19,193 nt of DNA from a virus (lineage: Duplodnaviria; Heunggongvirae; Uroviricota; Caudoviricetes), in IMG/VR virus record IMGVR_UViG_3300043119_000318; one strand, 5' to 3'. Position numbers and translations under genes: made by a program. The notes under the pieces are model-generated. The model saw nothing but the letters and a program-made list of their open reading frames with translations. It was not told the DNA's origin and did no database searches. Positions 5,847-6,873 of the stretch are shown piece after piece. Position 1 is the stretch's first letter. Every line of letters begins with the position of its first letter.

Positions 5847-5922
5847 TGGCACCCCCTGATGGATTCGAACCACCGCATGTCGGAATCAAAATCCGATGCC
5901 TTACCAGCTTGGCTAAGAGGGT
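5847..5922 (-). tRNA. tRNA-Gln(TTG)
   Basis: TCGGA-TTTTGAT-TCCGA arm, G73, CCA. Confidence 0.94.
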
Positions 5923-5926
5923 ACAT

Positions 5927-5952
5927 AGACTGACTACCGAAGCAGTCAGTCT
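5927..5952 (-). other. 11-bp C(UUCG)G hairpin just 5' of the first tRNA
   Basis: AGACTGACTGC-TTCG-GTAGTCAGTCT, no U-tract; probably a stabilising or processing hairpin. Confidence 0.65.
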
Positions 5953-6020
5953 CATAAATTGGTACGCAAATTGTTAAAGATCTTTAGTCAAACAGCCGTT
6001 GCCATTCAACGTAAGCACCT

Positions 6021-6049
6021 ATTTTACTTCAAACCTGAATTAAAGTCAA
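6021..6049 (-). promoter_or_regulatory. Sigma70-type early promoter for the tRNA array
   Basis: TTGACT-17 nt-TAAAAT. Confidence 0.85.
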
Positions 6050-6107
6050 GCACTTCTTTCAAGCTAAGCGAAGAACAGAACAACCTCTTCACTCAACCTA
6101 AGCACCT

Positions 6108-6136
6108 ATTTTACTTCAGAAGTGAATTAAAGTAAA
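6108..6136 (-). promoter_or_regulatory. Early promoter (TTTACT variant) for the tRNA array
   Basis: TTTACT-17 nt-TAAAAT, near-identical context to 1258-1286. Confidence 0.8.
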
Positions 6137-6169
6137 GCACTTCATAAGACCCTACAGTCTGTAGGGGTA

Positions 6170-6210
6170 AAACAAAAAACCCTCGAGAGACTTTCATCTC
6201 CGAGGGTTTT
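6170..6210 (-). terminator. Rho-independent terminator (conditional, see attenuator finding)
   Basis: AAAACCCTCG/CGAGGGTTTT stem with GAGA/TCTC extension, then TTTTTTGTTTT. Confidence 0.85.
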
Positions 6211-6254
6211 GGTAAAATTAAGTAAGACCGTTACGTCTTCTTACCAAAACCCTC
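6202..6254 (-). promoter_or_regulatory. Candidate antiterminator hairpin
   Basis: 14-bp perfect inverted repeat 6241-6254/6202-6215 that overlaps the terminator 5' arm. Confidence 0.7.
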
Positions 6255-6356
6255 AACATCATACTCAATCGCAAATACATTTCCTGATTGTGGGCGTGCG
6301 CCTGTCCAGACTCTATTTGATAGAGGTAGATGTTTTCTGGATAAGAGACACGACAT
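6231..6356 (-). CDS. Candidate leader peptide, 41 aa (MSCLLSRKHLPLSNRVWTGARPQSGNVFAIEYDVEGFGKKT)
   Basis: AAGGAA RBS with an in-frame TTG alternative start; follows the promoter at 6411-6439; the stop lies in the antiterminator loop. Confidence 0.65.
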   Translation of the reverse strand: MSCLLSRKHLPLSNRVWTGARPQSGNVFAIEYDVEGFGKKT

Positions 6357-6410
6357 TTGCAATTGATTCCTTGGTTTGATAAGACTATGCCTTATCATCT
6401 ATTTAGCGTT

Positions 6411-6439
6411 ATTATACAGCGATTTTCGTTTAAAGTCAA
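6411..6439 (-). promoter_or_regulatory. Sigma70-type promoter driving the leader
   Basis: TTGACT-17 nt-TATAAT; the -35 box contains the TGA stop of the deaminase. Confidence 0.85.
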
Positions 6440-6873
6440 GTTTTTTCAACATTTATTTCGCACTTCACCAGAAAGTCTTCACCAGCGGTGTCACGGTAGC
6501 TGTTACGGTAGTAAACGTTCTTGATTCCAGCGCCGTAGACCAACTTAGCACAGTTGATGCAAGGAGCATGAGTGATGAATATGCTGGCGCCAGTGCCTCG
6601 TTCACCATCGCGTGCCAACTTGAGAATTGCATTAGCTTCTGCATGAATAACCTCATCTTTTGTTTTCAATGTTACCAACCACTTGTCGTCGACATCGACA
6701 ACAATTTCTTCTTCACACTCATTACTCCAGCCAGCTGGCATTCCATTATAGCCGATGGAGATTATACGGTTTTCTTGGACTACCACTGCACCCACCTTCA
6801 ACCTGGTGGCAGAACTCAGCTGAGCAAAACGCTCAGCAGTATCCATGAATGCATCAATCCATTTCTGTTTCAT
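6436..6873 (-). CDS. cd: dCMP deaminase
   Basis: VGAVVV...GYNG, HAEANA and PCINC zinc motifs; start moved to the MKQKW Met, just after the upstream stop. Confidence 0.92.
   Translation of the reverse strand: MKQKWIDAFMDTAERFAQLSSATRLKVGAVVVQENRIISIGYNGMPAGWSNECEEEIVVDVDDKWLVTLKTKDEVIHAEANAILKLARDGERGTGASIFITHAPCINCAKLVYGAGIKNVYYRNSYRDTAGEDFLVKCEINVEKT

Follow-up and report, generated by a model that had tools for sequence, protein, structure and literature searches.

A candidate transcription attenuator with a compositionally complete leader peptide upstream of phage tRNA arrays

In mycobacteria, efficient translation of the short upstream ORF (uORF) of whiB7 leads to a rho-independent terminator, whereas translation stress leads to an antiterminator and read-through (PMC10274678). 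The amino acid content of this uORF sets which starvations are sensed, and the uORF of M. smegmatis contains 19 of the 20 amino acids (PMC10274678). Among the enterobacteria, the leaders of the trp, his and leu operons contain runs of a single regulatory amino acid, whose biosynthesis they control. A growing view of phage tRNA arrays is that they sustain translation during the decay of host tRNAs or their cleavage by defence nucleases; to our knowledge, the control of their expression is essentially undescribed. Here we describe a leader element that precedes phage tRNA arrays and that we consider a candidate attenuator of their transcription.

The element was analysed in a 19,193-nt stretch of DNA from a Caudoviricetes virus (IMG/VR record IMGVR_UViG_3300043119_000318), the whole of which is referred to as the window. 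The order of genes on its minus strand is ribonucleotide reductase, T4-type RNase H/5'-3' exonuclease, dCMP deaminase (6915-6436), the leader and tRNAs. Downstream of the leader, 20 tRNA genes extend on the minus strand from tRNA-Gln (5922-5847) to the window edge. The anatomy of the leader and of the region separating it from the array is as follows.

6411..6439, minus strand: sigma70-type early promoter, TTGACT-17-TATAAT, 11/12 consensus matches
6378..6396, minus strand: small 5'-UTR hairpin GATAAG...CTTATC; a similar hairpin is found in relatives with the same upstream architecture
6367..6372, minus strand: Shine-Dalgarno-like AAGGAA, 11 nt 5' of the ATG
6231..6356, minus strand: leader ORF, ATG at 6356, TAA at 6233-6231, 41 codons, peptide MSCLLSRKHLPLSNRVWTGARPQSGNVFAIEYDVEGFGKKT
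6311..6325, minus strand: hairpin H1, CTCTAT-caa-ATAGAG, within the ORF and just 5' of the invariant Trp codon
6291..6308, minus strand: invariant TGG (Trp) at 6308-6306 and conserved CACGCCCA at 6298-6291, third codon positions nearly invariant
6241..6254, minus strand: segment A, 5' strand of the antiterminator, GAGGGTTTTGGTAA, equal to ORF codons 35-39
6202..6215, minus strand: segment B, 3' strand of the antiterminator, ending in the 5 nt CCCTC, which double as the base of the terminator stem
6180..6206, minus strand: terminator stem-loop, CCCTCGGAGA (6206-6197) and TCTCTCGAGGG (6190-6180), loop TGAAAG at 6196-6191, containing GAAA
6169..6179, minus strand: terminator U-run, T6GT4, directly after the terminator stem
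6021..6166, minus strand: PeSL-like hairpin (CCCTACA...TGTAGGG, 6166-6150) and two repeated early-promoter cassettes
5847..5982, minus strand: pre-tRNA region, with motif GATCTTTAACAATT at 5982-5969, a hairpin at 5952-5927 and tRNA-Gln at 5922-5847, the first gene of the array

An initial annotation of the window had pointed out the promoter, the ribosome binding site and a 41-codon ORF using all 20 amino acids and 33 distinct codons, and all of these held at the positions listed above; the 11-nt spacing between AAGGAA and the ATG is rather long. It had also claimed that A pairs with B at 14 of 14 positions with the TAA between the strands, and that B can alternatively form a U-tailed terminator. 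The former claim held, A being the exact reverse complement of B on the other side of the stop codon, with the refinement that the apical part can pair further. The latter held only in part: B and the terminator share nothing more than CCCTC, plus optional pairs between the A-tract and the U-tract, so the exclusivity of the two structures is real but partial. The whole leader folds far better than shuffled sequences (z = -6.0, 0/200), with A:B present in the minimum-energy structure. A 55-codon version of the ORF, starting from the ATG at 6398, was rejected, as L001, a relative with 97% identity, lacks an open frame 5' of the conserved ATG.

Two promoter-like sites lie 3' of the terminator on the minus strand of the window, at 6136-6108 and 6049-6021. 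The initial annotation had noted them (at 6108 and 6021) with the caution that the device may boost rather than gate tRNA expression, and this caution holds for the window, where two constitutive promoter cassettes bypass the terminator and the leader device can therefore only boost expression of the array. The CCCTAC...GTAGGG hairpin and early-promoter cassettes after the terminator are also found in L027, L054, L070 and L080. The number of cassette copies between the terminator and tRNA-Gln varies, and in many relatives cassettes are located upstream of the leader as well. By analogy, the post-terminator units resemble the mobile PeSL promoter/stem-loop cassettes of T4-type phages. Immediately 5' of the first tRNA, every relative carries the motif GTTCTTTAAAAATT (the GATCTTTAACAATT of the window), which in some relatives and in the window (5927-5952) is followed by a perfect hairpin, AGACTGACTGC-TTCG-GTAGTCAGTCT; this motif and hairpin could possibly be a precursor-processing signal. 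A T4-type late-promoter motif, TATAAATA, is situated between the early promoter and the leader ORF in L002, L010, L015, L051, L056 and L075, and is degenerate in the window (GCTAAATA, 6401-6408). Given this position 5' of the leader, it is possible that the leader and the array are also transcribed late.

Relatives of the element were collected from IMG/VR contigs using dCMP deaminase as a bait, followed by a scan for the terminator motif. The terminator motif alone was discarded as a diagnostic of the element because it is common in unrelated contexts. The resulting set comprises 106 copies of the leader element, representing 67 distinct coding sequences and 66 distinct peptides. It is linked to tRNA arrays: a tRNA gene occurs within 400 nt downstream in all 93 members for which 500 nt or more of downstream sequence is available, and the first tRNA after the leader is tRNA-Gln in 98 out of 101 cases. 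Complete arrays behind the leader contain 26-31 tRNAs, with each of the 20 amino acids represented. The post-terminator promoter cassettes of the window are missing from at least 13 distinct relatives, in which a spacer of only 39-60 nt without any promoter-like site separates the terminator from tRNA-Gln; there, transcription of the array would depend on terminator read-through. L038 and L074 are examples of relatives that lack promoters downstream of the terminator. Other relatives have one or two hairpin-plus-early-promoter cassettes inserted after the terminator. ARAGORN labels one tRNA as 'Pyl' in the arrays of L198 and L096, which would mean a tRNA with a CUA anticodon (amber-suppressor-like).

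A divergent subfamily of leaders (L091, L104, L117, L121, L154 and L186) was missed by the HMM filter used for the family. Its peptide, MKSIQLHSFYCSPEINLTGSWNASRRDTAEGLKM, is 34 residues long and lacks only one of the 20 amino acids; the leaderless start (see below), an H1-like hairpin, the A:B helix and the terminator are all retained. We searched 50,697 cultured or deposited phage records with the leader (blastn) and with its peptide (tblastn) but have not identified any relative, the tblastn hits being chance matches only; nor does the genome of the window have a close relative among deposited phage genomes. Rfam covariance models gave no relevant match to positions 5900-6500 at E up to 1, T-box included, and comparison of the leader peptide with PHROGs yielded no family at E up to 1. 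The literature searched contained no account of an element of this kind.

Several features demonstrate that the leader ORF is under coding constraint. Its frame is open in all 66 distinct versions, whereas the other two frames are open in 3/37 and 0/37 and contain up to seven stops. Between the Trp codon and the start of stem A there are 13 distinct spacer lengths, ten of which are congruent modulo 3. Changes in the 5' arm of H1 are synonymous and keep Leu-Pro-Leu, while changes in the 3' arm alter amino acids and keep the pairing. The entropy of third codon positions is only modestly raised (0.93 vs 0.78 and 0.83 at the other two) because RNA structure and the nucleotide constraint at CACGCCCA overlie the coding sequence. 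Conservation of the Ser/Thr-Arg-Pro codons at CACGCCCA extends to individual nucleotides, including those at third positions, and Arg is almost always encoded by CGC. Coding does not explain this conservation, and no pairing partner was found for CACGCCCA. At the peptide level, the conserved parts are KHLPL, GW, RP, AIE and GFGK.

The position of the promoter relative to the ATG is also informative. Among 73 distinct upstream regions, 55 carry a consensus promoter whose -10 hexamer ends 6-11 nt 5' of the conserved ATG, in most cases 6-7 nt; the mRNA is therefore predicted to be leaderless, with the ATG at the predicted +1. Leaderless mRNAs are unusual for T4-like phages. Such loci include L007, L022, L044, L047 and L093, and a second upstream promoter is often present. 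In the remaining 18 upstream regions, including that of the window, the promoter is located 53-62 nt 5' of the same ATG, which is preceded by AAGGA. The spacing from AAGGA to the ATG is 10-12 nt in most relatives of this architecture and 6 nt in L015. That the ORF is actually translated is supported by several lines of indirect evidence but is inferred from sequence alone, without translation data.

The RNA structures are conserved and covary. When RNAalifold was applied to the complete leader aligned with MAFFT, misaligned loops limited recovery to the terminator and part of H1; pairs were therefore counted on structures defined by hand. For the A:B helix, the count was made on an alignment of 62 sequences with author-defined structures and compared with 500 shuffles and with slid controls. 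The helix has 20 pairs, with 88% of cells paired and changes on both sides in six pairs and 37 cells. None of the 500 shuffles reached its covariation score, its share of paired cells or its count of double-change cells, and it also lies above all slid controls. For the GC-rich terminator stem, 96.8% of cells are paired, five pairs show compensatory changes and 48 cells have double changes. Where A has lost one nucleotide from its T-run, B has lost one from its A-run; such matched deletions occur even when they alter the reading frame of the C-terminus, giving peptides that end in GGFGK, GGLASR or VRVRQVN. Each of the 58 distinct versions has H1, always just 5' of the invariant Trp codon; its stem occurs in at least seven different sequences and shows compensatory changes. 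It is possible, as a speculation, that H1 makes the polymerase pause and so keeps it in step with the ribosome, in the manner of the trp leader; no consensus pause signal after H1 could be established by eye.

The competition between the two downstream structures is conserved as well. In every homologue A:B takes CCC(TC) from the terminator, the overlap being 3-5 nt. The minimum-energy state in nearly all homologues consists of full A:B with the bottom 3-5 terminator pairs broken, and forcing the terminator costs 0.3-7 kcal/mol, mostly 1-4. This small energy gap indicates that the alternative between A:B and the terminator is real but finely balanced. It should be noted that, with so short an overlap and so small a gap, a leaky switch is conceivable, as is a terminator that is merely weak. 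From the 5' end of A to the stop codon there are 14-24 nt (15 nt for 36 of the 67 distinct coding sequences), and from the stop codon to CCCTC 26-36 nt. From these distances, a ribosome at or near the stop codon would cover A and leave B free for the 3' arm of the terminator.

The most unusual property of the leader peptide is its composition. The 66 distinct peptides range from 32 to 49 aa; 44 have the complete set of 20 amino acids, 21 lack one and a single peptide lacks two. Val is the only missing residue in 16 of the 21. For a random 41-mer with the composition of the phage, the probability of completeness is about 0.007, and no complete stretch occurs among 2848 real 41-aa windows taken from its proteins. 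Three null models gave the following numbers.

Draws from the pooled composition of the family (alignment-free): 0.5 complete peptides of 66 expected, 44 observed
Residues shuffled within alignment columns: 7.0 +/- 2.3 of 66 expected, maximum 16, 44 observed
Tree-simulated evolution with site-specific frequencies and a complete root: 7.5-11 of 66 expected, maximum 29 in 400 runs, 44 observed

Among 17 representatives with less than 60% mutual identity, 13 are complete. Exactly one His is found in all 66 peptides, spread over five alignment columns; exactly one Cys in 61 (11 columns); exactly one Tyr in 64 (five columns); and exactly one Asp in 61, while one Trp occurs in all. Retention of the single His, Cys and Tyr residues despite their changes of position means that completeness itself is selected, not the position of the residue. 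This leader shows no enrichment in one amino acid, and His, Trp, Tyr, Cys and Asp are single-copy. As an inference from sequence alone, the completeness pattern fits a translational sensor and not a folded or binding peptide. The possibility that the leader codons are tuned to the phage tRNAs was rejected, since 87% of them are readable by these tRNAs versus 86% in control genes; as the leader codons are not specially matched, the data do not tell monitoring of host tRNAs from monitoring of phage tRNAs.

The initial annotation had suggested comparing ORF length, codon diversity, stop position and compensatory changes between related phages, and the outcome was positive throughout. The ORF is conserved in length (32-49 codons), amino acid completeness is both conserved and statistically selected, the stop codon falls in the A:B loop or upper stem in every case, and compensatory changes are found for both A:B and the terminator. 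The placement upstream of a tRNA array also held, the leader always preceding the array and often doing so without an intervening promoter. Its reading of the element as a general attenuator responding to tRNA depletion is supported by this comparative evidence, with the control of read-through by translation still inferred; the host anticodon nucleases that it named as a trigger remain an inference only.

We favour, with a probability of about 0.6, the interpretation that the element is a ribosome-mediated transcription attenuator of the whiB7/trp-like kind, sensing general decoding capacity. The control of termination by translation, the direction of the response and the physiological signal are all inferred, without expression or termination data. 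Under this attenuator model, transcripts would start at the early promoter, in most relatives right at the AUG (leaderless), and would encode a leader peptide of about 40 codons. When translation proceeds smoothly to the stop codon, the ribosome would cover A and leave CCCTC free, the terminator would form and the polymerase would stop at the U-run. A ribosome that lags, stalls earlier or never loads would allow A to pair with B as soon as B is made; A:B would then sequester the base of the terminator stem, and the polymerase would read on into tRNA-Gln and the rest of the array. With all 20 amino acids represented in the leader, the rare ones by a single residue, tRNA transcription would be expected to rise when any aminoacyl-tRNA runs short. 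A possible exception is Asp, whose lone codon lies 6 nt 5' of A; a ribosome stalled at this codon may cover A instead of releasing it, and Asp is perhaps not sensed. The efficiency of leaderless translation in the host, for which there are no data, is a weak point of the model. It also counts against the attenuator reading that KHLPL, GW, RP and AIE are conserved more than a pure sensor needs, as do the unexplained nucleotide-level conservation of CACGCCCA, the absence of any special match between leader codons and phage tRNAs, and the two promoter-like cassettes after the terminator of the window.

A bolder version, which we regard as no more than possible, takes the minimal 'one of each' ORF as a pan-aminoacyl-tRNA sensor: if any one host tRNA species were depleted or cleaved, for instance through anticodon nucleases, the phage would detect it and respond by transcribing its complete 20-amino-acid tRNA set. 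The anticodon-nuclease link in this version is pure inference.

Three other explanations deserve consideration. The nearest to our own keeps the attenuator and changes its signal: the device would report transcription-translation coupling or ribosome availability as an infection timer, or would serve negative feedback by phage tRNAs, instead of sensing defence-triggered cleavage of host tRNAs. In support of it, the mechanism would respond to any delay of the leading ribosome, the phage tRNAs decode the same share of leader codons as of any phage gene (87%), and leaderless starts make ribosome loading itself variable. However, a pure coupling timer needs no selection for 20 amino acids with relocating single residues, and we consider this explanation unlikely. 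About equally unlikely is that the ORF encodes an ordinary small early protein, that A:B is an mRNA-stabilising or processing hairpin before a constitutive leaky terminator, and that the synteny with tRNAs is historical. The conserved KHLPL, GW, RP, AIE and GFGK do suggest selection at the peptide level, and the long, nearly perfect 20-bp helix could be a site of the RNase III type; the early regions of T4-like phages are also full of small genes behind strong promoters. This scenario nevertheless leaves unexplained why the single Cys, His and Tyr are kept while moving among 5-11 columns, and why the C-terminal frame may change while the RNA stem and the stop position persist. Moreover, the peptide matches no Pfam-like or PHROG family, and relatives without a promoter after the terminator would need read-through.

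The least likely alternative, which we regard as very improbable, is a non-coding structured RNA with an incidental open frame, such as a tRNA-precursor processing signal, a protein- or tRNA-binding element or a small RNA. It can draw on the three covarying hairpins (H1, A:B and the terminator), on the nucleotide-level conservation of CACGCCCA and on a third-position entropy only slightly higher than that of the other positions (0.93 vs 0.78 and 0.83). Against it, the frame is open in 66/66 versions with the other frames closed, spacer indels come in multiples of three, the ATG is exactly at the predicted +1 or behind a Shine-Dalgarno sequence, the 5' arm of H1 changes synonymously and the composition is complete; no Rfam match, T-box included, was obtained either.

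If the attenuator reading is true, the leader would be the first regulatory peptide selected for compositional completeness, a design that would be natural for a general reporter of translation stress. With a length of about 200 nt, a sigma70 promoter and an intrinsic terminator, it would also offer a simple experimental handle on the feedback between decoding capacity and tRNA supply.

Among the known systems, the PeSL cassettes of T4-type phages resemble the units of a CCCTAC hairpin and an early promoter that flank the leader; they are, however, generic promoter-terminator modules between genes, whereas the leader with its A:B/terminator switch is a separate, array-specific element (PMC2839356, PMC4122927). 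The toiL uORF of the E. coli topAI-yjhQ operon is comparable as a multipurpose uORF that reports many translation stresses via stalls at different positions (PMC12121999). It differs in opening the ribosome binding site of the downstream gene and so preventing Rho-dependent termination, without an intrinsic terminator, and selection on its composition was not reported (PMC12121999). In the trp, his and leu leaders, the ORF ends beside strand 2 of a 2:3 antiterminator/3:4 terminator pair, and the terminating ribosome masks strand 2, much as proposed for A; the upstream 1:2 hairpin pauses the polymerase there, a part that H1 could play in the phage leader. In contrast to these leaders, the phage peptide contains every amino acid, the rare ones once, and the segment shared by the competing structures is only 3-5 nt. 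As the phage leader has no strand 1 to pair with A, its untranslated RNA should read through and not super-attenuate, unlike that of trp, his and leu. A close likeness is to whiB7, where translation of a short uORF decides between terminator and antiterminator, as we propose for the phage leader (PMC10274678). The whiB7 uORF, however, is strongly enriched in alanine, its composition differs from species to species, and its target is a transcription factor (PMC10274678), whereas the phage-borne leader has about 40 codons, no enrichment and a completeness that is itself selected, and the genes it is proposed to regulate are tRNAs.
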